Of a stretch of 64,000 nt of DNA, positions 2,610 to 63,610 are shown piece by piece. Below the pieces are notes generated by a model that saw only the letters and a program-made list of their open reading frames with translations, made no database searches and was not told the origin of the DNA. The stretch is from a virus (taxonomy: Duplodnaviria; Caudoviricetes). The stretch covers positions 32,001-96,000 of the IMG/VR virus record IMGVR_UViG_3300035517_000038; one strand, 5' to 3'. The number at the start of each line of letters is the position of its first letter. Positions within the stretch are counted from its first letter, which is position 1. A program made the position numbers and the translations under genes.

Positions 2610-2807
2610 ATGTCTGGATGTTTATATGCACAAGCAGGTTCTCAATTTTGTGAAACTTGTCCCATGCTTGCTGAATGTCAAGAAGCCGAACTACAAGCAG
2701 ATAAAGAAGATGCTGCTTATTGGCTTCGTCAGAAAGATATTGCTAAAAAATACGCAGAACAGCTAAATAGAGAAAGGCAAAATATGAAAGATTTATTATG
2801 GAACTAA
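2610..2807 (+). CDS. Hypothetical 65-aa Cys-containing protein
   Basis: ATG at 2610 immediately after the nrdJ stop; C-x8-CxxC-x5-C; overlaps the next gene. The ORF-track start at 2469 lies inside nrdJ. Confidence 0.65.
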   Translation: MSGCLYAQAGSQFCETCPMLAECQEAELQADKEDAAYWLRQKDIAKKYAEQLNRERQNMKDLLWN

Positions 2808-3043
2808 AAGATACAATCAATTGGATGGCCTCTAATAATTACAAAGAGAGGTTTATTGCTGAATATCAGCAATTGAAAATTCGTATTCACAGTTTAGAGA
2901 AGCTACTGGAAGATTGGTCAAAAGGCAAGTTGGAATTTCAACCAACTTGCCCTAAAGACCTTCTTAAAGAACAATTATGGAGCATGAGAGAATACAGAAA
3001 GTGTTTAAGAAAACGTGCTCTTATTGAAAATATTAACCTTTAA
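2798..3043 (+). CDS. crAss001_48-like small helical protein
   Basis: MELKDT..M.S..YKERF.AEY.QLKIR...L.F.PTCP..LL..QL..M..Y pattern recalled for this family. Confidence 0.75.
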   Translation: MELKDTINWMASNNYKERFIAEYQQLKIRIHSLEKLLEDWSKGKLEFQPTCPKDLLKEQLWSMREYRKCLRKRALIENINL

Positions 3044-3056
3044 AATTGATTTAAAT

Positions 3057-3596
3057 ATGAAAATTAAAATAAAACTTCTTGACGGTCAACAGATTCCCGC
3101 AATTATTAAAAAGGGAGATTGGATAGACCTTAGGGCTGCTGCAGATATTGATTTTAAAGCCCCCAGTTTAAATGAAGAATTTATCAAATGCAAGAGAAAT
3201 GCTGATAAATTAGAGTGTAATAATGTATTATTTCAATATGCATTGATTCCTCTTGGTGTATGTATGGAACTTCCTAAGGGTTATGAGGCTATCCTTGTAT
3301 CTCGTAGTAGTACCCCTAAGAAATATGGTATTATGATGCCTACAGGTTTTGGTGTCATTGATAATTCATACAATGGAGACTCTGATGAGTGGATGATGCC
3401 TGCTATCTCTCTTAAGCCTACATCTATTAACTTTGGTGACCGCATTTGCCAATTCCGTATTCAGCTTTCTCAAAAGGCTACAATGTGGCAAAAGATTAAG
3501 TGGTTGTTTACCAGTAATATTAAATTTAAAGTTGTAGAAACTTTAGGTAATACTGATAGACAAGGTATTGGTGAAGGTACCGGACACAATGACTAA
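3057..3596 (+). CDS. dut: Trimeric dUTPase
   Basis: GDWIDLRA, SRSS, GVIDNSYNG, GDRICQF and C-terminal RQGIGEGTG motifs. Confidence 0.92.
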   Translation: MKIKIKLLDGQQIPAIIKKGDWIDLRAAADIDFKAPSLNEEFIKCKRNADKLECNNVLFQYALIPLGVCMELPKGYEAILVSRSSTPKKYGIMMPTGFGVIDNSYNGDSDEWMMPAISLKPTSINFGDRICQFRIQLSQKATMWQKIKWLFTSNIKFKVVETLGNTDRQGIGEGTGHND

Positions 3597-3622
3597 TTAC
3601 TAATCAAACTTAATTTATTCAT

Positions 3623-4090
3623 ATGATTCTGACATCTATTTCTATAGGTGTTTCTATTGTGCTTGCTACTATTTTAGTAGCAGGCACTTTTAAGAAATAC
3701 AAATACACATACAATTTCGCAAAAAACTTTGAAACCTGTGGTCTTATTGTTATGCCATTTTATAATAATGGTAATCAATATAACTTCATTATAGACACTG
3801 GAGCTTCTCAATCTCATATATCATCCACTGTGGCACCACTCATTAGAGGTGCTCGAAGAAAAGAATGTTATAATATCTTTGGTATTGGCAATGAAACTAT
3901 AGAAGAAGCTATTATTACTACTCTCAGATATAAAGATAAAGTCATGAATGTTAAGGTGTATCCAGCAAAAGCTCTTGATAATAGCTTTGTTCATGTTAAA
4001 ATGCCTGTTCATGGTATTCTTGGTAGTGATTTTATTATTAAAAATAAAATAGTTATTGATTCTACTAAACAAACACTTATATTTAAATGA
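3623..4090 (+). CDS. Retropepsin-like aspartic protease with N-terminal hydrophobic anchor
   Basis: FIIDTGAS and GILGSDF motifs; hydrophobic residues 1-22. Confidence 0.85.
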   Translation: MILTSISIGVSIVLATILVAGTFKKYKYTYNFAKNFETCGLIVMPFYNNGNQYNFIIDTGASQSHISSTVAPLIRGARRKECYNIFGIGNETIEEAIITTLRYKDKVMNVKVYPAKALDNSFVHVKMPVHGILGSDFIIKNKIVIDSTKQTLIFK

Positions 4091-47276: not shown

Positions 47277-47431
47277 TTAACCCTGGAGAATAGAAGGGAT
47301 AATAGACATAGTTCTGGTGGGGTCAAGGACACAAATACCCAGTGTAGCCATTCTGTGGAATACAGCTGAATCTTCATCAAATGACATATTGTCATTGTCC
47401 ATTGCACCAGTGAAAGGATTACGCAGGCCCC
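47277..47431 (-). CDS. Major capsid protein exon 4 (absent from ORF track)
   Basis: (W)GLRNPFTGAMDNDNMSFDEDSAVFHRMATLGICVLDPTRTMSIIPSILQG*. Confidence 0.92.
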
Positions 47432-48190
47432 CAATCGTGTTATCGTATAGCTTTTTATCTATACTTCTATAACTTTCTTATTGTTATAGTTCAGCGTACA
47501 TTTTCAACCACGAGGGTTGTCGGATACTCTTGGAAGCATTATATTCTAATTTTCATTAGGTTCAGCTTCTACGCGTTACAATGGTAAAGTCTTTTATTTC
47601 TTTACTTTATCTCGGTATTCCCTGAGAATATCTTTACATCTTTCTCCATAACATATTTTTTTAATAGTACCAAAAGGTCTATTTAATTTTAATGCTATTT
47701 CTCTTGGATATAAATGTTGTTCAAAATACATATGATATATTTCAAATAATTGCTCCCTTGTGAAAGATATTCCATTATTTTTTAATCCTGATAAAAATGC
47801 GTGCCTTTGTTGCATTTCATCAGAAGCCCATTCAAGGTTTGTAATTCTATTATCCTCTTTATTACCATTTATATGGTTAATAGTTCTATAATTATTAGGA
47901 TTAGGTAAAAAAGCTATAGCAATTAGTCTGTGTATATATCTATAATAGTATTTACCATTATGATATAACCTAACCTGTAAATAACCGCTATTAGATTTTC
48001 TTTTACCAATGGTCATTAACTCACCTTTAATGTTTTTTATCTTTCCTGTATTTGAAATACTGTATTTAGGAAATTCTTCTATTATCTTAAATATTTCCAT
48101 AATATATGGTTTATAAAATATAATTAAATGGGTTCACCGATTTTACCCGATTATTCACTAATAGGTCGCCCTATTAGGCAGCAAGTTCAT
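47432..48190 (-). mobile_element. Group I intron 3 of MCP
   Basis: P1 CAGU|A..UGCUG with a U-G pair at the splice site; P4 AATCGGT / Q AATACCGAG; P7 GCGTA/TACGC; ends AACACGATTG. The junction gives CAG T|GG GGC (QWG). Confidence 0.92.
47594..48100 (-). CDS. Intron-encoded NUMOD4-HNH homing endonuclease
   Basis: IHRLIAIAFLPNP...INHINGNKEDNRITNLEW; C-terminal HTH. Confidence 0.92.
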   Translation of the reverse strand: MEIFKIIEEFPKYSISNTGKIKNIKGELMTIGKRKSNSGYLQVRLYHNGKYYYRYIHRLIAIAFLPNPNNYRTINHINGNKEDNRITNLEWASDEMQQRHAFLSGLKNNGISFTREQLFEIYHMYFEQHLYPREIALKLNRPFGTIKKICYGERCKDILREYRDKVKK

Positions 48191-48343
48191 ACTGATAGCC
48201 TCTGTACTCAGACTTACCCTTAACCTCACACTTGAAGATGTTGGGTTGGTCCATAGTACCAATATCCATAATATCATATCTGTAAGAGAAAGCAGGACCA
48301 CCATTCGGATGGATAATCTTATTTCTTACAGGGTCGTCGTAGT
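48191..48343 (-). CDS. Major capsid protein exon 3 (153 nt; absent from ORF track)
   Basis: (Y)YDDPVRNKIIHPNGGPAFSYRYDIMDIGTMDQPNIFKCEVKGKSEYRGYQ. Confidence 0.92.
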
Positions 48344-49205
48344 CACTATGTTATCATGTAGCTTTTTATCTACATTTCTTATACTTTATCATTGTATAAG
48401 GTCAGCATATATCATCATCTTCAAAGAAGATGTCGGACACTCTTGGCAGGATTATATTCTTTAAAAAAGTATTCACCTGCTATGCGTTACACTGATGATA
48501 GCTTTTTAATTCTATCATTTAGCACGGTATTGTCCACGCCTACCTTTATTAATTCATTATAGAGTTCGTCAGGGATTTCAATAATATCTCTAATAAAACT
48601 TTCTCTATTGAAATTTAATCTCAACCATTTCCAAGTTTTACCAGTAATTATATTTCTGATAGTTATATGACCTACATTGTATAATTTACTAATCAGCTTA
48701 ACACTAAATCCATAATTTAGCAATGTAGGTATTAATAAAACTTGCTCCTCAGATAGTGGAGATAGTTTCATGTAACTATTAGAATTATTATCCATATTAA
48801 ACTTAGCTGTGTACTCCGTGTTATATTTTTCAGTACACCATTCTAAATTCGAGACATTATTATTTTTCCTATTGAAATCTTTATGATTTACATCAGGAAG
48901 GTTTTCAGGATTAGGAAGAAAAGCTAAAGCCACCAATCTATGATTCTTAATTGTTTTTCTATTCCCTTTATCATCTACAAGAGTATTCTGTAAATACCCA
49001 CAAGAATCTTCTGTAGCAGTAACATATCTATTTACGAACTCACTGTATATAGAGCCATTGTTGTAAATTCTATAATTACTAAATCCTTTTATTTTTTTAT
49101 ATTGTTCTATCATAATTTAAATTATTAGAATAATACCTAGAAGGAGTTTACCGTTTTTGCCCGATTTTCTTAATAAATCACTTTATTAAGCCGCCCTACT
49201 AATTA
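48344..49205 (-). mobile_element. Group I intron 2 of MCP
   Basis: P AAAACGGT; Q AATACCGTGCT; P7 GCATA/TATGC; ends AACATAGTG. The junction gives CCG T|AC TAC GAC (PYYD). Confidence 0.92.
48487..49113 (-). CDS. Intron-encoded NUMOD4-HNH homing endonuclease
   Basis: HRLVALAFLPNPENLPDVNHKDFNRKNNNVSNLEWCT; C-terminal HTH. Confidence 0.92.
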   Translation of the reverse strand: MIEQYKKIKGFSNYRIYNNGSIYSEFVNRYVTATEDSCGYLQNTLVDDKGNRKTIKNHRLVALAFLPNPENLPDVNHKDFNRKNNNVSNLEWCTEKYNTEYTAKFNMDNNSNSYMKLSPLSEEQVLLIPTLLNYGFSVKLISKLYNVGHITIRNIITGKTWKWLRLNFNRESFIRDIIEIPDELYNELIKVGVDNTVLNDRIKKLSSV

Positions 49206-50055
49206 ACGGGTCTACGTCAATTTTTACACGAACACCATTAGGAGCCATGTATTCTACAAACTGGAAGCCTGCAGTAAGAGCATTAGGACTAAGCTCAGAG
49301 GAAGTGCGAGAAACAACCTTAAGAGCATCACCGTTAATAGTGAACTGAGTCCAACCATTTACTTCCTGCATTACTGCCTTGTGGAACTGAATAGCACCAC
49401 GCTCACCAGTCTTTAAAATAAAGTAACGGTCACCAAAATTAAGCTTTGAAGCAGACAGCTCTAAGAGAGCACGTTCAATCAGCTTAATAGAGAACTTGTT
49501 GTAATAATGAACATTAGATACTTCCATCTGCTCAAAGAGACCAGCACCCTGCTTGATAACTTCACCAGATTTACCGATGTTCATATATTCACCATTCTTA
49601 TTTCTATTTGAGCGACCAAAAGCAAGAATGTTATTCTTATATTCAGAGAAAGTATTTTCACATTCCCATTCTGCATAGTGCATCCAAGTGTTAGCAACAG
49701 CACCTACCTTAGTACCTGAAGGAGTTTCCTTCATAATAGGCAGACCTACTGCAAGCTTTTTATCAAGCATATCACCAGGAACCTTATGCTGGATACGAAT
49801 ATAAGACCACTCATTTCTCATAGCAATGGGAGAACTAAATCTCACATCACCAACTTTTCTCGAAAGAGATTTTTCAATGGGAGCATATTCAAAGCTGAAT
49901 TTCTCACCAGCAAGCAATCTTTCAGCAGGGATACCATCGGTGTTGCCGCCCATAAGCTCCACTTTATACACCGCGTGAGTTCCTTCCATACGAGCATTGC
50001 CTAAAATTCGCATGGGGTAAACCTCATTGAGATTGCCTACGATTACTTCGCCATC
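49206..50055 (-). CDS. Major capsid protein exon 2
   Basis: DGEVIVGNLNEVYP...SRKVGDVRF...KTGERGAIQFH...KIDVDP. Confidence 0.93.
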
Positions 50056-50938
50056 CAAATTGTTACCCTAAAGGCTCTTTATCCTTTAGCTCTATAGATT
50101 ATTTATTCTCTATAGTTCGGAGTACATTTTCATCTTGTAGAGGAATCTTTAAGATGTCGAACACTCTTGGATATATTATATTCTACGATTACCTGTTATT
50201 AACTGACTTAAGTATGATTTACTAATCTTATATTTTGTCATAATTTCTTTTCTAGATACACCAGAATTAAAATCATTTATAATATTAATCCTATCCTCCT
50301 GACTTAGCTTATAAGTTCTAGAAGTTCTTAGTTTAATATTATTTCTAGTTAATATTCCTTTTACAGTGGCTTTATCTATATTATATACTTTAGAGATAGC
50401 TCTTAAGGAGTTTCCTTTATTGTACATACTACAAATAAGTAATTGTATTTCTTTAGGTGTTTGTATTAATTTAGCACCTTTCTGACCCCCTTTAGTAGCA
50501 TTATAACCTTTATTATAAGAATCATATTGTTCTATATAATAAATCTCTCTACTATCTAATAAACATTGTTCACATTCTTCCAACTTCTCAATAGAAAAAT
50601 TATGTTTACCATATTTAAGTATAGCTCTTTTGATAGGCATTTCCAATTCATTCTTAGAACCAGTTTTACCACAATGTCTATACCACCTATCTTTAAGAGG
50701 TTGAATAGTTTGCCCTATATAAACCTTATTGTTTATTAGATTTGTAATTTTATAAATACAACCAATCATAGTTTCAATATCTACTCTCTACACTACCTTC
50801 ATATATTATTATAAAGGTTAGCACGGTATTAACATATTAGCTGAAGTAATTCTAATAAGCCTTCACCGTTTTTGTTCGATTTTCATTTGTCTATTACTAG
50901 ACAAAGTGCCAATGTTTAGCTTATGCAGCTATGGTTAT
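50056..50938 (-). mobile_element. Group I intron 1 of MCP
   Basis: P3 TCGAAC/GTTCGA; P AAAACGGTGAA; Q AATACCGTGCT; P7 GAGTA/TACTC; ends AACAATTTG. The junction gives GCT|GAT (WFA-DGE). Confidence 0.92.
50176..50769 (-). CDS. Intron-encoded GIY-YIG homing endonuclease
   Basis: CIYKITNLINNKVYIGQT...REIYYI...GYN; two C-terminal HTH repeats. Confidence 0.92.
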   Translation of the reverse strand: MIGCIYKITNLINNKVYIGQTIQPLKDRWYRHCGKTGSKNELEMPIKRAILKYGKHNFSIEKLEECEQCLLDSREIYYIEQYDSYNKGYNATKGGQKGAKLIQTPKEIQLLICSMYNKGNSLRAISKVYNIDKATVKGILTRNNIKLRTSRTYKLSQEDRINIINDFNSGVSRKEIMTKYKISKSYLSQLITGNRRI

Positions 50939-51295
50939 AGCAAACCAATCTTCATCAAACACAAGATAGAAAGGAGCAGTACCTGCACCAATCATACCTG
51001 ATTCTTCAGTAACTACCTTACCTTCCTCATCTCTAGCTTCCCACAGAGGAATATTTCTTCTATTAGAACCAGTTACTTCCCAATAGATTTCTGAATCATC
51101 ATCAAACTGCTTGGTAGAAAATTGTGAAAGGAAAGTATCAAGGGTCTTACCCTTATTCCATGCAAGAAGGTTTACCATAACATTGGTAGCCTTCTGAGGG
51201 GACTTTCTAAAAATAGAACCAAGGTGGTTCTCTTTAGTCAGACCCTTCCAATGCTGGAAACCCAGCATTTGGAATTTCTTTAATTGTCCTGCCAT
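50939..51295 (-). CDS. Major capsid protein exon 1 (spliced product 504 aa)
   Basis: MAGQLKKFQMLGFQHWKGLTKENHLG; the four exons total 357+850+153+155 = 1515 nt. Confidence 0.93.
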
Positions 51296-52497: not shown

Positions 52498-52529
52498 CAA
52501 AGTTACTAAGTATCTACGAATTAAACAAC
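52498..52529 (-). promoter_or_regulatory. Candidate promoter for the capsid operon
   Basis: GTTG-N19-TAACTTTTG (one extra T relative to consensus), downstream of a terminator. Confidence 0.5.
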
Positions 52530-52581: not shown

Positions 52582-52614
52582 AATAAAAATGGGTGAAGAA
52601 GATTCTCCACCCAT
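52582..52614 (-). terminator. Terminator closing the accessory cassette
   Basis: ATGGGTGGAGAA-TC-TTCTTCACCCAT followed by TTTTATT. Confidence 0.75.
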
Positions 52615-52618
52615 ACAC

Positions 52619-53059
52619 TTAACCTTTAAAATATTTATAAACCTTGGATGTGTGTTTATAATCCTCATCCATAAACCAAAAGGTAATAGCAGCATCAATA
52701 ACCTTATCCTCAATGTTAGTGGTACCAAACCAATTATACATTAACTTACAGTAATCGTGATACTGAGCATTGATTGCTATATAAACCTCAGGTATGGTAG
52801 CTCCAGTAGCAGAAAGGTGATGTTCTTTAAATACACACTTGGCTTTTTCATAATCAAAAACCCAGCCTGTGTATTTCTTCCCTTTAAAGCAATGGTACAT
52901 ACCATCTACTATTTCTTTTGCTTCTTCTTCAGTAATCTCGTGCGTAGTTGATTCTCTTGTTTCTTTTTTACAACAGAGGTGTTCCTCTACCATCTCCTTT
53001 ACTACTTCTTTTAAAGGTTCGTAAAGATTCATGTGCTTTAGTAAAAATATGGTTTCCAT
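52619..53059 (-). CDS. Conserved hypothetical helical protein of gut phages
   Basis: ITEEEAKEIVDGM...YIAINAQYHDY...FWFMDED...KVYKYF. Confidence 0.75.
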   Translation of the reverse strand: METIFLLKHMNLYEPLKEVVKEMVEEHLCCKKETRESTTHEITEEEAKEIVDGMYHCFKGKKYTGWVFDYEKAKCVFKEHHLSATGATIPEVYIAINAQYHDYCKLMYNWFGTTNIEDKVIDAAITFWFMDEDYKHTSKVYKYFKG

Positions 53060-53060
53060 A

Positions 53061-53438
53061 TTAATTCTTAACTAAGATTTTTTTTAATTCGTTAATTTCA
53101 GTAAGACCAAAGCTAACTACTTTCTTTGTAAAAGGTACAGGCACTTTAATATTACCACCACCTATTTCTATCTCACCTAAATCTCCAGCGTCAATAGTAA
53201 AGGCTTTAGAGTTAATAGCACTATTCAGCATTTCTTCAGCCATAGAACTAAAGTCAACTATACCTTCTTCATTAGCAAGTAGTTCACAATACTTTGTAAT
53301 CTTATTTGTACTATTTTTCAAAACTCTGCTAATAACAGGTTTTGCAAAATTAACAATGGGGAACTCCTTAGATACTTCATTAATTAAATAGTCAGCACTT
53401 TTCTCAAGCCTAACTACTACTTCATCAACTGTAATCAT
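53061..53438 (-). CDS. Hypothetical protein
   Basis: ORF coupled to its neighbours (ATGA overlap upstream). Confidence 0.75.
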   Translation of the reverse strand: MITVDEVVVRLEKSADYLINEVSKEFPIVNFAKPVISRVLKNSTNKITKYCELLANEEGIVDFSSMAEEMLNSAINSKAFTIDAGDLGEIEIGGGNIKVPVPFTKKVVSFGLTEINELKKILVKN

Positions 53439-53914
53439 ATATTATTTTTTAAAAATTCTTCATATGTTGCATTAGGATTGCTCTTAGCATATTCCTTAAA
53501 TTTTAAGAATAATTCCATCTCCTTCTTAGTATCTTGTATAATACTAGTCTTAATACTTTTGGTAATCTCAAGATGACTCTCAAGAATCTTTTTACCCTGC
53601 TCAGAACCTTCTATTTTACCTTTAACCAAATTCATCAACTCCTGCTGCACTAGAGTCTGTATTTGATTGTATGAAGCCACATACTTAGCATCAGTATTTA
53701 ACTGAGTAAGTTGCTCATCTGTCAAAGTTGATAGTTCAGCATCTAATGAAGACCATAAAGATTTAGTAGGTTCAGGTTGAGGTACTCTTGAATTATTTTG
53801 TAATTCTTGTAACTTCATCTTATAAGCATTAAGCTGTCTAATCTGAGAATCTAAAGAATCCATTGATAATCCTGAAGTATCAGGAGTTCCACCTAAATAA
53901 ATGTTATTGTACAT
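53435..53914 (-). CDS. Hypothetical Gln-rich helical protein
   Basis: Clean ORF; C-terminal NPNATYEEFLK. Confidence 0.75.
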   Translation of the reverse strand: MYNNIYLGGTPDTSGLSMDSLDSQIRQLNAYKMKLQELQNNSRVPQPEPTKSLWSSLDAELSTLTDEQLTQLNTDAKYVASYNQIQTLVQQELMNLVKGKIEGSEQGKKILESHLEITKSIKTSIIQDTKKEMELFLKFKEYAKSNPNATYEEFLKNNI

Positions 53915-53937
53915 GGTTTATAAATATATTAAAGGTT

Positions 53938-55272
53938 TTAATAATCTCCAGCGTTTACTTTTACTCTACCAGATTTTATATCAGATTTTGAGCAATATAT
54001 ATCTCTATTATAAGGATTCCAAAATGTGATATTAGTAGGATGGGGATTATAGGCTAAATAATATTTATATCCTTGAGTTTCCCACTTAACAACATCATCA
54101 TGAATACCTCCTGCACATTGAATAGTGTCATCATATACTAGAGTAGCACCATAAGGTTTTTGCCAAATAGTAAAACCACTTTGCTCAACCCACTTTCTAA
54201 ATTCTCCAGTAGAGTCCTTCTTCTTGAGAGTTTCAAGAGCTTGATTAGCTTTTGTAATATAATCAGAGAACATATTAGGAACTCTATTGTATTTCCAATC
54301 AACTAGGTCAGCTCCAATGTTTTTAACTAGTTTATAAAAGCCCGGCATTGCTCCTGATTCAGGAGTAAATCTTCCCCATGAATCTGTATATGTAATATTA
54401 TTTAATACAATAGCAGATGTCACAGAAGAGCTTGGAGAAGAGGTACCATCAATAATATCATAATACTTTTTAGGCAATACCATAGACCGACACTGTTGTA
54501 TAGCATATGTGGAAGTAACAGTGGCACCTGACCTTACATTGTTAGCAAGGTTAATAATAGTATTATAATAGGCTTTCCAAAGATTTTCATAATTGGTCAT
54601 TGAAACTGCTTGTGCAGTAAATACACCATCATTCCACGAAGAGGGTACCTGATACTCAGGTAACTTCATTCTAAATCTAGCTCCTACTATACAGCCATTA
54701 TATAAGCTATCATATTTCAATGCTGAATTAGCTAAACAGTTTTCATTAGAAGCATTATCATTCCACCAACCATAATGACCTCTTGGAGCATAGCACCAAC
54801 TAATATCACTATAAGGATAGTTCCAAGTACCAATAGTGCCTTTAACAGCATCTTTTAATTTTTGTAAGTATGCTGTTTGTAATTCTTTTCTTGCATCACC
54901 TTTTGCAGGATATGCAGTAGCATCACTTACATTAGTAGTATCAATAGTAGCGGCAGTTTCCCAAGCAGTGCTTGATTTAGCAGAGGTAAATGCAGTAACA
55001 GCTGAATTATGAGCTGTGCATAAAGGTATTATTTGATTTACAAATACCTTCTCATATACATTATATAATTGCTGTAGATAGGTAAAGAATCTCCAATTTT
55101 GCTCTGTAATAAAGTCCACCATATCTTGTTTATTGGAATACTTTATTACATTAGTAAAATTATTATCAGGGTCATAAGAAGTTTGCCTTGTGTAGAAATG
55201 AGAACCATCATTAGCTACTGCAAAATTTTCAAGATTTAAATAGACATCATTTGAATTAGTTGCGTATGCCAT
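53938..55272 (-). CDS. Unknown 444-aa protein, paralog of 55290-57533
   Basis: Shares W..YY, PKKYYD, PYG.T.V..D and YN.D..C.KSDI..G motifs. Confidence 0.8.
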   Translation of the reverse strand: MAYATNSNDVYLNLENFAVANDGSHFYTRQTSYDPDNNFTNVIKYSNKQDMVDFITEQNWRFFTYLQQLYNVYEKVFVNQIIPLCTAHNSAVTAFTSAKSSTAWETAATIDTTNVSDATAYPAKGDARKELQTAYLQKLKDAVKGTIGTWNYPYSDISWCYAPRGHYGWWNDNASNENCLANSALKYDSLYNGCIVGARFRMKLPEYQVPSSWNDGVFTAQAVSMTNYENLWKAYYNTIINLANNVRSGATVTSTYAIQQCRSMVLPKKYYDIIDGTSSPSSSVTSAIVLNNITYTDSWGRFTPESGAMPGFYKLVKNIGADLVDWKYNRVPNMFSDYITKANQALETLKKKDSTGEFRKWVEQSGFTIWQKPYGATLVYDDTIQCAGGIHDDVVKWETQGYKYYLAYNPHPTNITFWNPYNRDIYCSKSDIKSGRVKVNAGDY

Positions 55273-55289
55273 AATATTTAATTTTAAAG

Positions 55290-57533
55290 TTAATACTCAT
55301 TTACACCAGGTTTAATAGAACCCCCAAGAATATCTGATTTAAGGCAGCATAAGTCCTTATTATATCTGCAACTATACTGAGCAAAATTATCTATCCATGT
55401 ATCATCTGACCAATTGTAGTAGTCATTAAACACATAAGTAAAACCATAAGGAGTATCAATTATACCACCATTAGATTTAATGTAAGTAGCAAGAGTACCG
55501 TCAGTATCATATTTACCTAAAGCCCAAGTAAGGATTGTATTAGCATCTTGATAGAGGCGCGTAATCAATCTTTGGTACTGAGAAAAGTCTGCTGCATTTT
55601 GCGAAAATTTACGAGCATATTGATAACTTTCATTACCTGCATTACTGGGAGCTGTATTAGGACCACAGAGATACCATTCTGTTTGATGCCACCTTTTATA
55701 TATAACTATAGAGGTAGCACCATATATTCCATTACTGGTATTTGCTGTAGTCATGTATGTAACATTGTTAGTAGAGCTTCTACCATAAGTAACTAAACAA
55801 GGTGCACCACTTGTGGCATTAGCTGCTACATAATCAGGGTCAGGGATATTTACATAGGTAAAAGAACCTGATTGCATATTTGCGGCATAGATAGCACTTT
55901 CATTATTAGAGTTACTAGAAGCATAAGCAGATGGGATTGAGGTTTGTCCTACCCATCTGGAATTACGTCTAGTGTTACTCTTAGCCAAGTTATCAGTAGA
56001 TATAGAACCTGTTACAGTACCTTTAGTAGAGTTATTAGCGGTGCCATCAGGAGTAGCTCCTGCACCACTGGTAACTGCTGTACCATTAGCATCTTTAGTT
56101 CCTAAACAATAGGGAGATAATGTCATACCTGTTTTAGCTTTCCAACCAGCTTTAACAGCATTAAGAGTATCATAGAAGTATTGCTCTACTGTGATTAAGT
56201 TATCAGGAGTAACAACAGTGTATGCCTTTAAACCATCATATCTCTCAAGTAATTCAGCTAATGTATCTACACTGTTTGTTTGTAAACGTGCTACAACACT
56301 AGGAGCTGCAGTATTGCTAGTGGAAGCTTGATACTGAGCCAATAAACTTGGGGTAGTATAATTTGTAGTAGCATTATTATAATCATAATATGTATAGCAT
56401 ATCAGATTAGATTCATCAGTTGTACTATCTATAGTTTGTGATGTAGCCTTAGGCATAGTGGTGTATTTAAACTCTTGCATAAAATTAGCCACCATTTCTT
56501 GTGCCTTATAAGTATTATTAGGTAAGGCATCATCATGACCTATGTATGAAGTATCAAAATCAAAATCATAATTTCTACTCCAAGAGGTAGTATCATAATA
56601 CTTCTTTGGTACTGATGGTACAATAGTTTCACTAAAATATTTCTTAATAGCGTGAGAGCTATTCAGTGTTGCTATCTGACAAATGTTCTTATAGTAAGTA
56701 ACCCATTTATTAAGGAATGTAGTTAAAGCACCCATCTGATTCATCATCACATGACCATAATCAGCTTGCTGCAACATTACTTGGTTAGGACCTTTTGAAT
56801 TATTAGTACCCCATATCCAACCTCTATCTATCTTACTACCATCCCAAGCACCTGCATTATTATCCCAATAACCACTATTACAATCCCAAGGAGTAGGATA
56901 CCAACCTGGGTCTGTAGTAGAGCTGCTGGAAGAAGATTGCCCAGTCTGATTATTAGTAACAGTTGTAGTAGTAGTTGTACTACCAGGTTCAGTAGCACCT
57001 TTTGTCATTAAAGTTTGTGCATTTGTTTTCTCACTATTACTTACTAATAACTGAGTATATTGAGTCCAAGGAACTCCCCAAGCAGGAGAAATCCAGTGAG
57101 TCATCCCCTTCCATAAACCATCATCTATACTTTTATCGCTATTCCAATATACTGAATCAGTAAACCTTGTAGTATTTACTAAATGACGTACAACACCACC
57201 TGAATTATAAATGAAATCAGAATATGTAGCAGTACAAACACCTGCATACAGCTTAACATATTTCCATTGTATAGTCTTATCTGTATTAGCAGATTGCTTA
57301 GCTGCTAATAGAGTTTCAAGTTTTTTATTTAAAACATCTGCTTTAGTTTGTAAAGTAGATTTATAATTTTGGAATGTAGAAACAAGACTACGTGCATATG
57401 TGGTAGCTTCAGCCTTAGTAGCAAATGATTTGGTGGGTGTAGAGCTATAACTCTCAGGTAACATACGAGTAAGATGATTACCTTCGAGAATATCATCTAA
57501 GTTTTTAATTATATCACTAAATGTATTTGCCAT
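55290..57533 (-). CDS. Unknown 747-aa T/S/N/W/Y-rich protein
   Basis: Long ORF with low-complexity linkers; paralog of 53938-55272. Confidence 0.8.
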   Translation of the reverse strand: MANTFSDIIKNLDDILEGNHLTRMLPESYSSTPTKSFATKAEATTYARSLVSTFQNYKSTLQTKADVLNKKLETLLAAKQSANTDKTIQWKYVKLYAGVCTATYSDFIYNSGGVVRHLVNTTRFTDSVYWNSDKSIDDGLWKGMTHWISPAWGVPWTQYTQLLVSNSEKTNAQTLMTKGATEPGSTTTTTTVTNNQTGQSSSSSSTTDPGWYPTPWDCNSGYWDNNAGAWDGSKIDRGWIWGTNNSKGPNQVMLQQADYGHVMMNQMGALTTFLNKWVTYYKNICQIATLNSSHAIKKYFSETIVPSVPKKYYDTTSWSRNYDFDFDTSYIGHDDALPNNTYKAQEMVANFMQEFKYTTMPKATSQTIDSTTDESNLICYTYYDYNNATTNYTTPSLLAQYQASTSNTAAPSVVARLQTNSVDTLAELLERYDGLKAYTVVTPDNLITVEQYFYDTLNAVKAGWKAKTGMTLSPYCLGTKDANGTAVTSGAGATPDGTANNSTKGTVTGSISTDNLAKSNTRRNSRWVGQTSIPSAYASSNSNNESAIYAANMQSGSFTYVNIPDPDYVAANATSGAPCLVTYGRSSTNNVTYMTTANTSNGIYGATSIVIYKRWHQTEWYLCGPNTAPSNAGNESYQYARKFSQNAADFSQYQRLITRLYQDANTILTWALGKYDTDGTLATYIKSNGGIIDTPYGFTYVFNDYYNWSDDTWIDNFAQYSCRYNKDLCCLKSDILGGSIKPGVNEY

Positions 57534-57545
57534 AGTTTTTAAACT

Positions 57546-57941
57546 TTAAGGGGTTGTTGCTGGGGTAGTTGTAGTATCAGTAGCTACATTACTTACATAG
57601 AATACATACTTTTCTAAGAAGTCAGTATCATTATTATTAATGGCATCTTGTACTTTTGAATAATAATTATTCCAAGCTTCATACCATTTAGTAATAAGTT
57701 CAGAAGGGTCTGTAATAATGTAAGGGTCTAAGCTATCTTCTATCATGCCTGTTGTATGAGTCTTTGAATAACCATCAACAGCAGTAGCTAAAACAGCATC
57801 TGAGTTAAATGCACTGGGAGCAGTTATATTATTACCCGTCACATTTCTACCATCTTCAATACCATAAGTAGTTTTTATACCATTTGAAGTACCAGTGGCA
57901 GTGGTGCTATCTATCACTACTGGAGTATAAACAATTGCCAT
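57546..57941 (-). CDS. Unknown 131-aa Thr-rich protein
   Basis: WNNYYSKV helix resembles the two downstream proteins. Confidence 0.75.
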   Translation of the reverse strand: MAIVYTPVVIDSTTATGTSNGIKTTYGIEDGRNVTGNNITAPSAFNSDAVLATAVDGYSKTHTTGMIEDSLDPYIITDPSELITKWYEAWNNYYSKVQDAINNNDTDFLEKYVFYVSNVATDTTTTPATTP

Positions 57942-57965
57942 AGTATAATAAGTTTTAAGTATTTA

Positions 57966-58003
57966 CAAAATAAGAAAGTAGGGATATTTGCATACCCCTA
58001 CTT
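57966..58003 (-). terminator. Terminator/attenuating hairpin after the lead gene of the cassette
   Basis: AAGTAGGGGTAT-GCAA-ATATCCCTACTT followed by TCTTATTTT. Confidence 0.7.
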
Positions 58004-58017
58004 GTAATTAACCTTGC

Positions 58018-58623
58018 TTACGCTTGGCAGCAAGGACATTCTAAACCTGCAAGGGGGTTGAATGTTGACTTAGCAGTAGACGTAGTAGCTACAGACACAT
58101 TAGCAACAGAAACAGGATAGAAAGTGCTATTTACATAGTTAACTACCGCATTTTCTGCACAATGACGTCTTTCAGCCTCAAGAGCTAAAGCAGCTTGAGA
58201 ACCAGCAGCTACACCGCCAATTTGCATTTCTAACACCTTAGCTCTCCAAGGTTCAACAGCTGCATCAACAGCTTGTTTGGTTTCAAGAGCAGAGATTCTA
58301 GAAAGAATTGCATCCTTTTCATCTCTTTGGTTTTTATAGAGAGCAAAGCTGGTATCAACAATCTTATTACTCAGAGTCTCATACATTGACTGTATTTCTC
58401 TAATGTTAGAGATTTGACCCTGATAATACTGCTTGGTAATATCAACATAGTCGGCATTTTCTTTTTCAGCAACAGCAGCTACTGCACCGCCTCCAAGACC
58501 ACTGAAAATACCGCCACCTCCACCAAGAGCCAATAAACCGCCCAACGCAGTGCCGATAATACCTGTGGTAAGAGCGGCGTTTCCTTTGGCATTACTAGCA
58601 TACTTTTTTTCTTCAATTTCCAT
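58018..58623 (-). CDS. Gly-zipper / coiled-coil protein with C-terminal CPCC
   Basis: GNAALTTGIIGTALGGLLALGGGGG hydrophobic segment, heptad region, CPCCQA; ATG at 58623. Confidence 0.8.
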   Translation of the reverse strand: MEIEEKKYASNAKGNAALTTGIIGTALGGLLALGGGGGIFSGLGGGAVAAVAEKENADYVDITKQYYQGQISNIREIQSMYETLSNKIVDTSFALYKNQRDEKDAILSRISALETKQAVDAAVEPWRAKVLEMQIGGVAAGSQAALALEAERRHCAENAVVNYVNSTFYPVSVANVSVATTSTAKSTFNPLAGLECPCCQA

Positions 58624-58678
58624 AATAAGCAAATTAGAAGTGATTAATGTAAAAATAAAATGATAAAGTGAATAAGTT

Positions 58679-58701
58679 GTAAGCTTACGGGTGCAAAGTT
58701 A
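58679..58701 (-). promoter_or_regulatory. -7 box TAACTTTG plus palindrome GTAAGCTTAC at the predicted start site
   Basis: Box at 58694-58701; perfect 10-bp palindrome at 58679-58688. Confidence 0.65.
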
Positions 58702-58732
58702 TGTAATAATATTTAGAATACCTATCAATGCT

Positions 58733-58780
58733 AAAAACAACAAAACCCCCAAACTATCACTCAGATAGTCAGGGGGTTTG
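58733..58780 (-). terminator. Terminator after the HTH gene
   Basis: AAACCCCCTGACTATC-TGAGT-GATAGTTTGGGGGTTT followed by TGTTGTTTTT. Confidence 0.8.
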
Positions 58781-58792
58781 CTTACAATAGAC

Positions 58793-59098
58793 TTAGCATT
58801 GTTTTCTACTTTTGCTAAAAGAGTCTAAATCTTTCTTATACCATCTTAATTCCTTAAAGCCTTGTACGTGTGCTCCTTTAGGGATATGCCCTTCTCTTAC
58901 ATGGTTATCGAAAGTAGCTCTACTAACATTAAGGTAGTTGCAAGCTTGGTATTTACTCATACCTTCATCCTTAGTTGTGTACTTTCTAAGGATTTCAATT
59001 ATTTCTTCAGATTCATTTTCTGATATATTAGAATTTCCAGCATCAATATCCTCAACAACTTTATACAATAAATTTCTTATTATCTTTATCATTTCCAC
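58793..59098 (-). CDS. Excisionase/AlpA-like HTH DNA-binding protein
   Basis: MSKYQACNYLNVSRATFDNHVREGHIPKG...LRWYKKDL. Confidence 0.8.
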   Translation of the reverse strand: MEMIKIIRNLLYKVVEDIDAGNSNISENESEEIIEILRKYTTKDEGMSKYQACNYLNVSRATFDNHVREGHIPKGAHVQGFKELRWYKKDLDSFSKSRKQC

Positions 59099-59450
59099 AT
59101 AAATAGATTAAGACTGCTACTATACTAATGGATAATTCTCCAATAAATAGGGTTCGACACTCTAAACCATTACAACAAATATATGATGCAATACAATCAT
59201 ACAAATAAATACTGATTATATAATAAAGAGGTATTCGATGAATCCAACAGTATTTAAATATATATGACATATAAAGAAGAATTGTGGCAGAGAATATTGA
59301 TGGTGATATAGCTTTATAAAAAATACCAGATGCAACACCTTTATATACTGCCACAATTCTTATAAAAACAAGGAAGGCAAGGAAAAGTGGTTTATATTTT
59401 ACAAAAAGTAAAAATAATTTATACTCCTTCTTGTTAATCCTAGCACTCAT
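59061..59450 (-). CDS. Small multi-pass membrane protein
   Basis: About four hydrophobic segments; FKYCWIHRIP; overlaps the HTH gene. Confidence 0.7.
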   Translation of the reverse strand: MSARINKKEYKLFLLFVKYKPLFLAFLVFIRIVAVYKGVASGIFYKAISPSIFSATILLYMSYIFKYCWIHRIPLYYIISIYLYDCIASYICCNGLECRTLFIGELSISIVAVLIYLCGNDKDNKKFIV

Positions 59451-59950: not shown

Positions 59951-60364
59951 TTACTTTTTGATTAATGTGTATAACTTAATAGATACTAGGATAGTGGCAG
60001 CAATACCTAAATACATAAACATTGTTTGCCACCAATATAACTTATTCACTTCTTTAGTTTCTGTAATAGTAGTTGTAATAGGAACAGGCACCTGTATAGA
60101 GTCTGTTTTCCTAATAGTATCATAGACAGTCTTTAGTTTATATTTCTCAATATATTTAGTCTTAAATACAGTATCATTTCTACTCTCAATATAGATAGAA
60201 TCCCTAAGGTATATGCTATCATATGCTACTGTATTTATATATTCCGTTCTTATTGTCTCTACCTCTACTGGAGTTTCAATAATCCTCGTACTCCCACAAG
60301 AGGTAAAGAGGATAGCTATAAGGACTAAGATAGTCCCTATAGCCATAAGCCTCAATGATTTCAT
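59951..60364 (-). CDS. Lipoprotein with C-terminal TM (unimolecular spanin-like)
   Basis: Lipobox LFTSC; DSIY/DTV repeats; C-terminal hydrophobic helix. Confidence 0.65.
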   Translation of the reverse strand: MKSLRLMAIGTILVLIAILFTSCGSTRIIETPVEVETIRTEYINTVAYDSIYLRDSIYIESRNDTVFKTKYIEKYKLKTVYDTIRKTDSIQVPVPITTTITETKEVNKLYWWQTMFMYLGIAATILVSIKLYTLIKK

Positions 60365-61077: not shown

Positions 61078-62307
61078 TTATTCGGATACTGTAATTGTGT
61101 AACCTTTAGCAGAGGCTTCTTGGGCAAAAGAAGAATATCTAGCTGCTACTGCATTATAGGTATTTGTGGATAAAACAACTGTACAAGCACTATAACCAGC
61201 AGCCGCTCTATCATATGAATAAGTTACTATACTATCATAAACAGATTGTGCTGAAGTACCAGTACCTGTACCCCAAGCAGTTAATGGAGAAAAATCCAAA
61301 CTTGTACAACTTGAAGAAGTTCCTAATTCTTTAAATGTGCAAGTGTTTAAAGTGGTACTCTGGAAATAAGATGCAGATATAACAGATGGTATTGTAATAC
61401 TCCCCATAGATGTAACTCTATGTCTATTAGTTAGTGCGTATTCTAGATACTTAACTGAAGATATGTCAATATCTTTTACAGTATAAGCAGATAATGGAAT
61501 TACATCCATAATATCAGTAGCTGCAGGAAATGATAAATTGGGTAACTCTCTGATATTAGTATCTTCAAATAAGCCTGAGACTGAAGTAGCATTAGGCGCA
61601 TTTATACTAGAAAATTTTGTAAGGCTATAACACCTACTAAACATATAACTAATATCAGTAGCTTTTGGTAAACTTATGCTCCCTATAGTATTTAAATTTA
61701 CACAATCCATAAACATACCAGGAGCTTTTATACAATTTTCTAAAGTTACATTACCAACAGTAGTCAGGTATTTACAATTACTAAAAGTATAAGAAGCATC
61801 TGTAACTAGAGGCATATTAACAAAATTAGGAACAGATTTAATGTTAGAATATGCAAAAGAATACTGAATACCCAAAGTATTAATAGGTAAAATCCATTCA
61901 GGAAACTCTTCTAAAGAGGTTTTATAAAAAGCATAATCAAATCCCTGGGTAATCTTTATATTATAATTAGGTATGTACTTAAGATTAGTACAGTTCATAA
62001 AATTAATACCAAGACCCTTACTAATATCCTGCATAGGAGCATATACCATAGTTGAATTATTTGTTATTTTATAAGTACCATCTGTAGTAGTTAATTTTAA
62101 ACCCGCGCTAGCTGCTATATCTGCCTTTAATTTATCATACAAAGTGCTATCATACCCAAGTACCTCATAAGGGTCTGTATCTATAACAGCTTCATCTACC
62201 TTAGTAGGATACTCTGAAAATTTATCCCCTACTTCAATACCTTTATTATTAAGAGCTGTTTTAAGCTCTTCCTTTATACTTAATATTTGTTCAGCTTTTT
62301 CTTTCAT
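61078..62307 (-). CDS. BspA/DUF285-like repeat protein (putative receptor-binding/fibre)
   Basis: Repeats of about 23 aa (ASYTFSNCKYLT, PGMFMDCVNLN, SYMFSRCYSLT). Confidence 0.75.
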   Translation of the reverse strand: MKEKAEQILSIKEELKTALNNKGIEVGDKFSEYPTKVDEAVIDTDPYEVLGYDSTLYDKLKADIAASAGLKLTTTDGTYKITNNSTMVYAPMQDISKGLGINFMNCTNLKYIPNYNIKITQGFDYAFYKTSLEEFPEWILPINTLGIQYSFAYSNIKSVPNFVNMPLVTDASYTFSNCKYLTTVGNVTLENCIKAPGMFMDCVNLNTIGSISLPKATDISYMFSRCYSLTKFSSINAPNATSVSGLFEDTNIRELPNLSFPAATDIMDVIPLSAYTVKDIDISSVKYLEYALTNRHRVTSMGSITIPSVISASYFQSTTLNTCTFKELGTSSSCTSLDFSPLTAWGTGTGTSAQSVYDSIVTYSYDRAAAGYSACTVVLSTNTYNAVAARYSSFAQEASAKGYTITVSE

Positions 62308-62308
62308 A

Positions 62309-63610
62309 TTATCCTAAGACTTGAGTAAGTATTTTATCAGTTTCATCAATCTCAGTAGCTAAAGTAGCTCTATCTTCAACAAGAACAACTGAGTAGCCTT
62401 TATTATTCATAGTGGTTATATGGTCAGCAGTAAGACAGTTATAAGCATAAGGTGCTAATAATACTGTGCAAGTATCATAACCAGCAGCTGCTCTATCAAA
62501 GCTACCATTAACCAAAGTCTCAATTACAGACTCTGATGGAGTGTATTTACAATAATCTTTATGGTCTCTTAAATAATAGTATTCTTCATCATTGCCCCAA
62601 GCAAGTAATTCATTCATATAAGCAACCGTGCATTTTGAATTAGTGCCAAACCCTCTAAAATAACAAGAGCTTAAAGTGTTATTACCGTGGTTATATCCTG
62701 CATAAGTCCATCCTTCATAAAAACCAGCCATACCTGAAATATCAAAGAAATCAGTTACTGCTTCAAGATTACCACCTTCGTGAATTACTTGATAGGCGTC
62801 TGAGCATTTGGGAATATTAATAGATTTAAGTCTATTTACTCTACTAACATCATATAATTGATAGCATTGTGTACATAGAGGTAAATCTATTTCTCCATCA
62901 GTTTGAGAATAACTTAAATAGCCAGCCATTGTAACATTAGGAAAATGCTCACTATCAATAGGTGGATATTCATTTAAAGAACTACAATTATTAAACAAAC
63001 CAATTAGAGTACGACATTTAGGAGCATATATCTCACCTACTTTAGTAAGCAAGTGGCAACCTCTGAATACAAATTGTAATTGCCGAGCAGCAGGAAAAGT
63101 AGTAGCAGGAAATTCCTTTAAATGAGAATATTGAAAGGCTTGATTCATCAAAGTACAAGCACTATAGTCAATATCCTTAGGCGGTGTTTCTATTGCTGTA
63201 CTATCAAATAGGCTAATCATATAAGTAGGGGCAAAGCCCTTAGGCCATTGGACATACTTAAGTTTAGGAAAACCATTCATATACCCAAATGTAATAGCAG
63301 TACAACCTTCAGGTACTGTAATCTCAGGAAAATATACTACATCATCATCTCCATCAAAATGAGCAATTACGTGGGTACCATCAGTAACAAAAGTTCTTTT
63401 TGTATAAGTAAGCTCCTTATTACTATTCTTAATATCCTGTTTAAGTTCTTCCCACAGAGTACTATCATAACCTAAATCTTCCCAAGGATTAAAGTTATCA
63501 ACAGCAGTAGGGTAATCCTCAAATTTATCTCCTACCTTTATCCCCTGGTTATTCAGAGATTCCTTGAGGTTATTCTTGATTTCTATAATCTTATCTACTT
63601 TTTTTATCAT
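62309..63610 (-). CDS. BspA/DUF285-like repeat protein, paralog of 61078-62307
   Basis: VFRGCHLLT, LFNNCSSLN repeats; shared N- and C-termini with the paralog. Confidence 0.75.
   Translation of the reverse strand: MIKKVDKIIEIKNNLKESLNNQGIKVGDKFEDYPTAVDNFNPWEDLGYDSTLWEELKQDIKNSNKELTYTKRTFVTDGTHVIAHFDGDDDVVYFPEITVPEGCTAITFGYMNGFPKLKYVQWPKGFAPTYMISLFDSTAIETPPKDIDYSACTLMNQAFQYSHLKEFPATTFPAARQLQFVFRGCHLLTKVGEIYAPKCRTLIGLFNNCSSLNEYPPIDSEHFPNVTMAGYLSYSQTDGEIDLPLCTQCYQLYDVSRVNRLKSINIPKCSDAYQVIHEGGNLEAVTDFFDISGMAGFYEGWTYAGYNHGNNTLSSCYFRGFGTNSKCTVAYMNELLAWGNDEEYYYLRDHKDYCKYTPSESVIETLVNGSFDRAAAGYDTCTVLLAPYAYNCLTADHITTMNNKGYSVVLVEDRATLATEIDETDKILTQVLG

Follow-up and report, generated by a model that had tools for sequence, protein, structure and literature searches.

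A run of nine genes, situated between the lysis and the capsid modules of the 64,000-nucleotide (nt) window analysed here (bases 32001–96000 of IMGVR_UViG_3300035517_000038, a 104,923-bp virus record with direct terminal repeats), raises the question of whether these genes constitute one regulated cassette and what such a cassette may do for the phage. The location assigned to it by a first-pass annotation of this DNA is borne out by the flanks, with endolysin, spanin-like and holin-like genes on one side and gp31-like and capsid genes on the other. All nine genes were found on the minus strand at the coordinates given below, and the two terminators, the internal hairpin and the promoter palindrome described along with them are present as well. 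However, the nine genes are not a single cassette. The stretch consists of three layers, namely the end of the preceding lysis operon, a separate transcription unit with a conserved core, and a lineage-specific insertion. In keeping with the self-containment claimed earlier, the second of these has its own promoter and two bounding terminators, and positions 52589–58733 of the window appear to represent an autonomous late operon, the core of which is a widespread module of Bacteroidales phages. Our preferred, though tentative, interpretation (probability of about 0.4) is that the cassette is a regulated, late, envelope-directed accessory to lysis.

Organization of the locus

The core is made up of four genes coding for proteins of 201, 159, 125 and 146 amino acids (aa), which are the counterparts of crAssphage gp61–gp58. 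The features of the operon, together with the regulator-like helix-turn-helix (HTH) gene preceding it, are as follows:

58793–59098, minus strand: 101-aa HTH protein, candidate regulator of the next operon (PHROG 668 'HTH DNA binding protein', 1.1e-8)
58743–58779, minus strand: intrinsic-terminator-like hairpin ending the lysis/HTH operon (16-nt arms, 88% complementary, then a T-rich run)
58721–58733, minus strand: conserved promoter box TAGCATTGATAGG lying ∼20 nt upstream of the -7 box, occurring once in the 105-kb genome
58694–58701, minus strand: Bacteroides-type -7 promoter element TAACTTTG, one of ∼10 such intergenic sites in the 105-kb genome
58679–58688, minus strand: palindrome GTAAGCTTAC, candidate operator, 5 nt downstream of the -7 box, occurring once in the genome
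58018–58623 (58632 for an alternative start giving 204 aa), minus strand: 201-aa lead gene, homolog of crAssphage gp61
57976–58003, minus strand: hairpin, GC-rich and with a T-run, immediately 3′ of the lead gene, a putative attenuator or partial terminator
53435–53914, minus strand: 159-aa core protein, helical, with motifs conserved at both termini, homolog of crAssphage gp60
53061–53438, minus strand: 125-aa core protein, homolog of crAssphage gp59, its start overlapping the stop of the 159-aa gene by 4 nt
52619–53059, minus strand: 146-aa core protein assigned to DUF7841, homolog of crAssphage gp58 but lacking its Arg/Gly-rich N-terminal part
52589–52614, minus strand: intrinsic-terminator-like hairpin closing the operon after the 146-aa gene

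What stands of the cassette as first proposed is therefore the regulated and widespread core. The genes for a 129-aa membrane protein and for the HTH protein are the tail end of the preceding lysis operon, up to its terminator, and the genes of 131, 747 and 444 aa are a later, lineage-specific insertion at the junction formed by the lead-gene hairpin, shared with a handful of close relatives only.

With the exception of DUF7841 and the weak HTH matches, none of the nine proteins could be assigned to a family of Pfam, PHROG, NCBIfam or PADLOC. In agreement with the earlier statement that no recognisable enzyme or virion motif is present, no enzyme, virion, defence or lysis family from these four collections was matched, nor was any head family or, in Pfam and PHROG, any tail family. 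None of the findings named in the first-pass annotation as speaking against its proposal (genes not syntenic elsewhere, not co-transcribed, or similar to known tail or head proteins) emerged from the analysis.

Distribution and synteny of the core

Loci for comparison were collected with a profile of the 159-aa family, yielding 80 IMG/VR loci, and with a profile of the lead family, yielding 21 loci from species-representative genomes, mostly metagenome-assembled ones. The gene order lead–159–125–146 is nearly universal in both sets; a check of gene neighbourhoods, as had been recommended, thus finds the core syntenic in ∼100 loci, and the statement that the HTH, 201-, 159-, 125- and 146-aa genes recur together in gut phages proved to be true. 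The lead family alone comprises more than 4138 clusters at 90% identity, all of them unnamed and without a Pfam assignment, and nearly all located on crAss-sized (∼100 kb) contigs, that of the prototype crAssphage included. The protein atlas matches of the lead protein are unnamed viral clusters only. The operon occurs in thousands of Bacteroidales phages, prototype crAssphage among them.

The nearest named relatives of the core are the unstudied gp61–gp58 of crAssphage. KP06_gp61–gp58 (Carjivirus communis) and their equivalents in phage cr85_1 are direct homologs of the four core genes in identical order, the counterparts of lead, 159, 125 and 146 in cr85_1 being genes of 259, 166, 126 and 208 aa (tblastn and profile searches). 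The crAssphage locus differs, however, in that no HTH gene precedes it, the cassette stands among tail-fibre genes and gp58 carries an Arg/Gly-rich N-terminal extension. The labels of the cr85_1 genes ('putative tail protein', 'nuclear pore complex-like protein' and two hypotheticals) are based on position only. In BF1-TP2, a cultured temperate phage of Bacteroides fragilis, the corresponding products are gp40, gp39, gp37 and gp36. PhicrAss001, on the other hand, has no cassette between gp30 and gp31. A literature search retrieved no paper on DUF7841, crAssphage gp61 or BF1-TP2, and published proteomics studies that were consulted contain no data on the cassette genes.

Lysis genes adjoin the cassette in four unrelated genome architectures, and in every genomic context its neighbours include holin, endolysin or spanin-like genes. 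In Steigviridae-like phages the order is holin-like gene, DUF5675 endolysin, ∼130-aa membrane protein, HTH, a ∼113-aa HExxH protein, the core, gp31-like gene and capsid. Loci of the crAssphage type display tail-fibre genes followed by the cassette and then by a three-transmembrane (TM) protein (gp57) and a mini-zincin. Non-crAss phages and prophages encode, in this order before the cassette, small TM proteins, an endolysin (Peptidase_M15_3 or GH19), a lipobox protein and a ∼100-aa HTH protein of the Bac_DnaA_C type; the cassette itself consists there of lead, 159, 125, an 80–100-aa Gly/Arg/Tyr-rich protein, a 140-aa DUF7841 protein and a 130–148-aa HExxH protein. PHROG annotation of the neighbours in these non-crAss loci did not reveal the tail morphology. 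Among the closest relatives of the window phage, a gene for Amidase_2 (N-acetylmuramoyl-L-alanine amidase) lies between the HTH and lead genes (locus L012, 2705–3115), a position occupied by only a 160-bp spacer in the window phage, and in L082 a DUF5675 gene is found immediately 5′ of the lead gene. L104 has the cassette at a prophage end, with host genes beside it, and L109 has it close to an integrase.

Two further components accompany the core in other phages. A HExxH 'mini-zincin' of 110–148 aa (L005, 9177–9518; L007, 11027–11368; L102, 10454–10900; and many more), for which no Pfam family was matched, travels with the cassette; its gene precedes the lead gene in Steigviridae-like phages, whereas in crAssphage and non-crAss phages it is located downstream. 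The protein of 80–100 aa, which has a helical head and a low-complexity tail rich in Gly, Arg, Tyr and Met, is encoded between the 125-aa and DUF7841 genes in non-crAss loci (L102, 9744–9983; L099, 9629–9934; L108, 9696–9938; L097, 9440–9712; L109, 9569–9859), and the DUF7841 proteins of crAssphage and cr85_1 contain a comparable Arg/Gly-rich stretch as a fused part. Since the system of most phages includes both the mini-zincin and the Arg/Gly-rich segment, neither of which is present here, the window phage has lost them.

Promoter, candidate operator and hairpins

Conservation of the signals preceding the lead gene was followed across the homologous loci. A box related to TAGCATTGATAGG is present in 29 of 56 distinct related loci, and the -7 box lies 45–78 nt 5′ of the lead-gene homolog in 44 of 60. 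In 38 of 56 distinct loci the palindrome TGTAA..TTACA is kept at the predicted transcription start, 2–8 nt downstream of the -7 box, its flanks having diverged. As an RNA structure it would be weak (-1 to -2 kcal/mol), which makes a DNA operator the more likely explanation. Loci with a regulator of the Bac_DnaA_C type upstream bear different, GC-rich inverted repeats at the position of the palindrome, so that the type of regulator and the type of repeat change together. This co-variation supports a dedicated regulator which would bind the palindrome. The regulator claimed earlier is therefore upheld as far as the genes and signals go, with an HTH gene immediately 5′ of the core cassette in 58 of the 80 loci and cis-elements unique in the genome, its binding being a prediction. 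The match of the 101-aa protein to Pfam HTH_17 (24.2 bits, E 4e-5) is below the gathering threshold of 27, and that to the excisionase-type NCBIfam model TIGR01764 is below the cut-off.

About ten intergenic TAnnTTTG boxes, those at window positions 52505, 58701 and 10522 among them, were located genome-wide, each with a TTG ∼22 nt upstream and each preceding a major operon (portal, virion RNA polymerase, scaffold/capsid, cassette); they may serve as a simple map of the transcription units dependent on the host polymerase. The next promoter after the cassette, with TAACTTTG starting at 52505, would drive the gp31-like and capsid genes.

Here and in most homologous loci the lead gene is enclosed, as judged from sequence signals, between the -7 box and a hairpin with a T-run, a flanking of the moron type. 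Equivalent hairpins 3′ of the lead gene were recognized in the majority of Steigviridae-like loci and also in several of the non-crAss ones, including BF1-TP2. With a promoter and putative operator before the lead gene and a hairpin after it, the lead product is probably made in excess of the others. The abundant subunit postulated earlier accordingly has a counterpart in a signature of over-expression at the lead gene, as far as the sequence can indicate it.

Properties of the core proteins

From the N- to the C-terminus, the lead protein consists of a short charged N-terminus, a hydrophobic helix with a glycine zipper, a Gly-rich linker, a coiled-coil region and a Cys-containing C-terminus. 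The N-terminus holds a conserved short acidic/Lys motif, followed in many homologs by a Tyr/Gly/Cys-rich stretch. The most conserved element of the family is the near-invariant Gly-zipper segment ∼30 residues from the N-terminus, and the helical region contains one to five copies of an 11-residue repeat. Over 79 homologs, Lys/Arg residues flanking the hydrophobic segment number 2.8 on the N side versus 1.6 on the C side, and the median number of Cys residues following the segment is six. These figures fit a membrane protein of predicted N-in/C-out topology with an extracytoplasmic domain, and would fit equally well a protein which ends up outside the cell on a particle. The lead protein matched no holin family of Pfam, PHROG or NCBIfam, and PDB sequences yielded nothing but chance-level or meaningless matches when searched with profiles of the lead and 159-aa families.

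The 159-, 125- and 146-aa proteins have neither a signal peptide nor a TM segment. AlphaFold2 models of the 125-aa protein (a helical bundle with a small sheet) and of the 146-aa protein reached a mean predicted local distance difference test score of 89 and 86, respectively. Comparison of both models with the PDB by Foldseek gave no match at E <= 0.001, and in an exhaustive VIA-align search the best Z scores (5.0 for the 146-aa model; 6.4 for the 125-aa model, covering a helical hairpin only) were within the stated noise; the look-alikes of the core models in BFVD are uncharacterised viral family members only. A sigma-region-2 or head-tail-connector fold was considered for the 146-aa model and dropped, as only low-scoring VIA-align rows spoke for it. 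The 146-aa protein does match Pfam DUF7841 (69.3 bits with a cut-off of 25.2, E 4.4e-19), as does the separate 140-aa gene product of the non-crAss loci (3e-25).

Possible function of the cassette

That the cassette constantly adjoins lysis genes speaks more for a role linked to the envelope or to lysis than for the new particle-like assembly. The lack of the cassette in PhicrAss001 indicates that the module is dispensable, which fits an accessory role. In the mechanism we propose, the HTH protein would bind the palindrome and gate the promoter, and the hairpin would let the lead product build up far above the others. The lead protein would then insert into the cytoplasmic membrane with its N-terminus in and its C-terminus out, self-associate via the glycine zipper and act on the envelope at the end of infection, possibly as a second holin resembling T of phage T4, as a lysis-timing device or as an envelope-remodelling factor. 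The three signal-less core proteins could be its cytoplasmic partners or regulators, and the inserted 131-, 747- and 444-aa proteins, if fibre-like virion or surface-binding proteins, might make use of the late expression of the operon.

Holin T of T4 (∼218 aa) carries a single TM helix between a short N-terminus in the cytoplasm and a large, disulfide-containing domain in the periplasm; its partners, the antiholins RI and RIII, are small and soluble. The pinholin S21-68 builds its pore via a glycine-zipper TM helix. The 201-aa protein, encoded beside lysis genes, would by analogy share the general layout of T; it differs, however, in the repeat-bearing coiled coil of its C-terminal part, in having unrelated partners and in the lack of sequence, profile or fold similarity. 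In a comparison with two-component and unimolecular spanins (lambda Rz/Rz1, T1 gp11), its predicted topology, with an N-terminal membrane anchor and a Cys-bearing coiled coil of periplasmic length, also recalls the i-spanins. In this case, however, no o-spanin gene is embedded in or adjacent to the lead gene (no open reading frame (ORF) for a lipoprotein with a lipobox was found within or adjoining 58018–58623), the proteins encoded downstream have no signal peptide, and a separate protein of the u-spanin type is encoded at 59951–60364.

Several observations weigh against a lysis accessory. Family, profile and PDB searches revealed no sequence or fold similarity to a holin, antiholin, spanin or other lysis protein, and the lysis set of the window is already complete, holin-like, endolysin and spanin-like genes being present. 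The core partners of the lead protein look cytoplasmic, its peak hydropathy (1.64 here; mean of 1.51 over 79 homologs) is borderline for a TM helix, and a design of high expression plus a partial terminator is met with more typically in structural subunits than in holins. Moreover, the cassette of crAssphage stands among tail-fibre genes, with the lead gene annotated as 'putative tail protein' and gp61–gp63 as tail or tail-fibre proteins, that of Steigviridae-like phages directly precedes the scaffold-like and capsid genes, and the head-fibre gene gp29 of PhicrAss001 lies inside the lysis cassette, which renders lysis adjacency compatible with a virion role. These positions and the gp29 precedent also argue for the main rival explanation, which we consider somewhat unlikely, namely that the cassette is a virion accessory set whose lead protein is an abundant appendage of the capsid or tail, such as a head fibre in hexon pockets or a whisker, the 159-, 125- and 146-aa proteins being adaptors or chaperones and the inserted proteins additional fibres. 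The promoter–gene–hairpin layout would suit a major subunit accompanied by minor ones; the Cys-rich coiled coil with its variable count of 11-residue repeats resembles a fibre shaft; homologs of PhicrAss001 gp21, gp29 and gp22–gp26 are absent from the window genome; and the records with gp29 (35) and with the cassette (28) in the phage collection are disjoint. Bayfield et al. (2023, PMC10172136) note that in other crassviruses the part of the head fibres may be played by uncharacterised proteins. The head fibres gp21 and gp29 of PhicrAss001 described there are themselves small, abundant accessory virion proteins, and the gene for gp29 stands in the lysis cassette, shortly before those for the scaffold-like protein and the capsid. 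Proteins gp21 and gp29 share, however, no sequence similarity with the cassette proteins and are accompanied neither by a regulator nor by three partner genes. In family and PDB-sequence searches and, for the 125- and 146-aa models, fold searches, the cassette proteins resembled no virion protein family or solved virion structure. The cassette also co-occurs with unrelated capsid genes, such as the DUF5309 capsid gene of BF1-TP2; its place in non-crAss phages is next to lysis genes, at the distal end of the late region; and a dedicated HTH/operator pair with an associated mini-zincin is unusual for fibre genes. As a strict rule, the replacement of gp29 by the cassette is ruled out by the IMG/VR loci L036 and L040, which hold both.

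A moron-like function, in which the lead membrane protein would block superinfection or protect the infected or carrier-state cell with the downstream genes as helpers, appears decidedly unlikely. A host-type promoter and a factor-independent terminator around a single, dispensable membrane-protein gene are indeed reminiscent of lambda bor and lom or HK97 gp15, and so are the mobility between unrelated phages and the prophage-end and integrase-proximal positions in L104 and L109. Unlike single-gene morons, however, four to six genes move jointly here, the core four in fixed order, the promoter is of the same class as those of the portal, scaffold and capsid operons and hence probably late rather than constitutive, and the cassette resides in strictly virulent-looking crAss-like genomes. 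The proposal of the first-pass annotation, a second, non-capsid assembly, is very improbable in our estimation; here a filament, lattice or matrix distinct from the virion would be built by polymerisation of the over-produced 201-aa protein, with the others acting as minor subunits or chaperones. The major/minor expression architecture kept across lineages, the low-complexity Gly/Tyr/Arg-rich and Cys-rich segments of the lead protein and of the non-crAss RGG proteins, and core folds matching no known fold can be cited for it, but these features fit the other readings equally, and none of them shows self-assembly or contacts between the products. Only slightly better are the odds, in our view, of a novel phage-made structure switched by the HTH/operator pair, with the lead protein as its membrane-nucleated or lysis-released major subunit and the three orphan-fold proteins as minor subunits or assembly factors. 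Control of late transcription, with the HTH and DUF7841 proteins and their partners modifying the host RNA polymerase for late genes, is scarcely credible: many alignments of the DUF7841 model to sigma-factor region 2 were obtained, and an HTH gene and conserved promoter elements do accompany the cassette, but the scores (Z 3.5–4.1) lie within the stated noise of the tool, the unique cis-elements are found at the cassette promoter only and not at other late promoters, and the membrane-type, over-produced lead protein would be left unexplained.

Whichever explanation applies, a four-gene module of the most abundant human gut viruses, equipped with its own putative regulator and operator and its own expression design, has no assigned function, fold or family, and its core crosses between virulent crAss-like and temperate Bacteroides phages. 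Its lack in the model phage PhicrAss001 explains why structural and proteomic work has not met it, and the one cultured carrier, BF1-TP2 on Bacteroides fragilis, makes the function open to experiment. If the cassette acts in lysis, it would be a missing piece in how Bacteroides phages open the host envelope; if it is a part of the virion, the structural atlas of crassviruses would be incomplete for most of the order; and a new structure would be one common to the most abundant gut phages and absent from the only crassvirus with a solved virion.

Flanking lysis operon

Upstream of the cassette, the lysis operon codes for an endolysin of the DUF5675 L,D-carboxypeptidase type, 67% identical to PhicrAss001 gp30, and for a gp28-like, holin-like protein with one TM helix and a coiled coil. 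Between these two genes, a 137-aa protein (59951–60364, minus strand) with a lipobox lipoprotein signal and a C-terminal TM helix is encoded, a layout resembling that of a u-spanin (unimolecular spanin). Homologs of the 137-aa protein are encoded just upstream of the cassette in the unrelated phages L095, L097 and L102. The penultimate gene of the operon is the following:

59061–59450, minus strand: ORF of a 129-aa multi-pass membrane protein, overlapping the HTH gene by 38 nt

This protein had been described as having four TM segments. The overlap with the HTH gene is as reported; two hydrophobic segments exceed the threshold and about four are discernible by eye. BLAST homologs are found at the same position in 27 related loci.

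Inserted genes

The insertion between the lead-gene hairpin and the 159-aa gene consists of three genes:

57546–57941, minus strand: 131-aa Thr-rich orphan, first inserted gene, present only in 3 close relatives
55290–57533, minus strand: 747-aa Ser/Thr/Asn/Tyr/Trp-rich orphan without TM segment or signal peptide, possibly fibre-like
53938–55272, minus strand: 444-aa protein paralogous to the 747-aa protein, both having in common a C-terminal domain of ∼85 aa

Both large proteins are extremely rare. The 747-aa protein has 6 relatives among 5.8 billion proteins and no match in 50,697 phage records; the 444-aa protein has 4 matches among 1.84 billion representatives and no usable match in the protein atlas; and neither matches a PDB sequence. 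Their paralogy is supported by BLASTP (2e-4 and 3e-4) and by hhalign (probability of 93.6%, E 2e-7), the similarity residing in the C-terminal domain of ∼85 residues. The 131-aa gene was also considered as a paralog, and sequence comparison gave no support for this. Ser, Thr, Asn, Tyr and Trp are abundant in the 747- and 444-aa proteins, charged residues are few and export signals are absent, and the two genes sit where other phages place tail-fibre genes beside the cassette. A fibre or receptor-binding role is a guess made without a homology or fold match, and the chances for and against it seem to us evenly balanced.

The junction at the lead-gene hairpin appears to tolerate insertions, since in L090 a different insert, a GIY-YIG homing endonuclease gene (2787–3851), is found just after the hairpin. 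Genes for GIY-YIG homing endonucleases also lie just upstream of the lead gene in L016, L021 and L060.

Source genome

The window genome encodes homologs of the capsid, auxiliary capsid, ring, hub, muzzle and cargo proteins, the terminase and the portal of PhicrAss001, and its major capsid exon shares 72% identity with the counterpart in the Steigviridae phage cr85_1; the window therefore derives from a crAss-like phage. The host is presumably a Bacteroidales bacterium, in agreement with the Bacteroides-type promoters of the genome. For neither the head fibres (gp21, gp29) nor the tail fibres (gp22–gp26) of PhicrAss001 was a homolog found in the window genome (gp21 and gp29 were searched by tblastn against the whole genome), so that the fibre set seems to have been wholly replaced.

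The interval between the portal and lysis genes (genome positions 95950–104801; window positions 61078–63610) holds genes of 397, 2552, 433 and 409 aa, the last of which shows a weak match to DUF285. On the other side of the cassette, a homolog of PhicrAss001 gp31 is followed by an intron-split major capsid gene (window positions 47277–51295). This gene has at least four exons, corresponding to residues 1–119, 120–403, 404–454 and 449–504 of PhicrAss001 gp32, and the stretches between them encode one GIY-YIG and two HNH homing-endonuclease ORFs.

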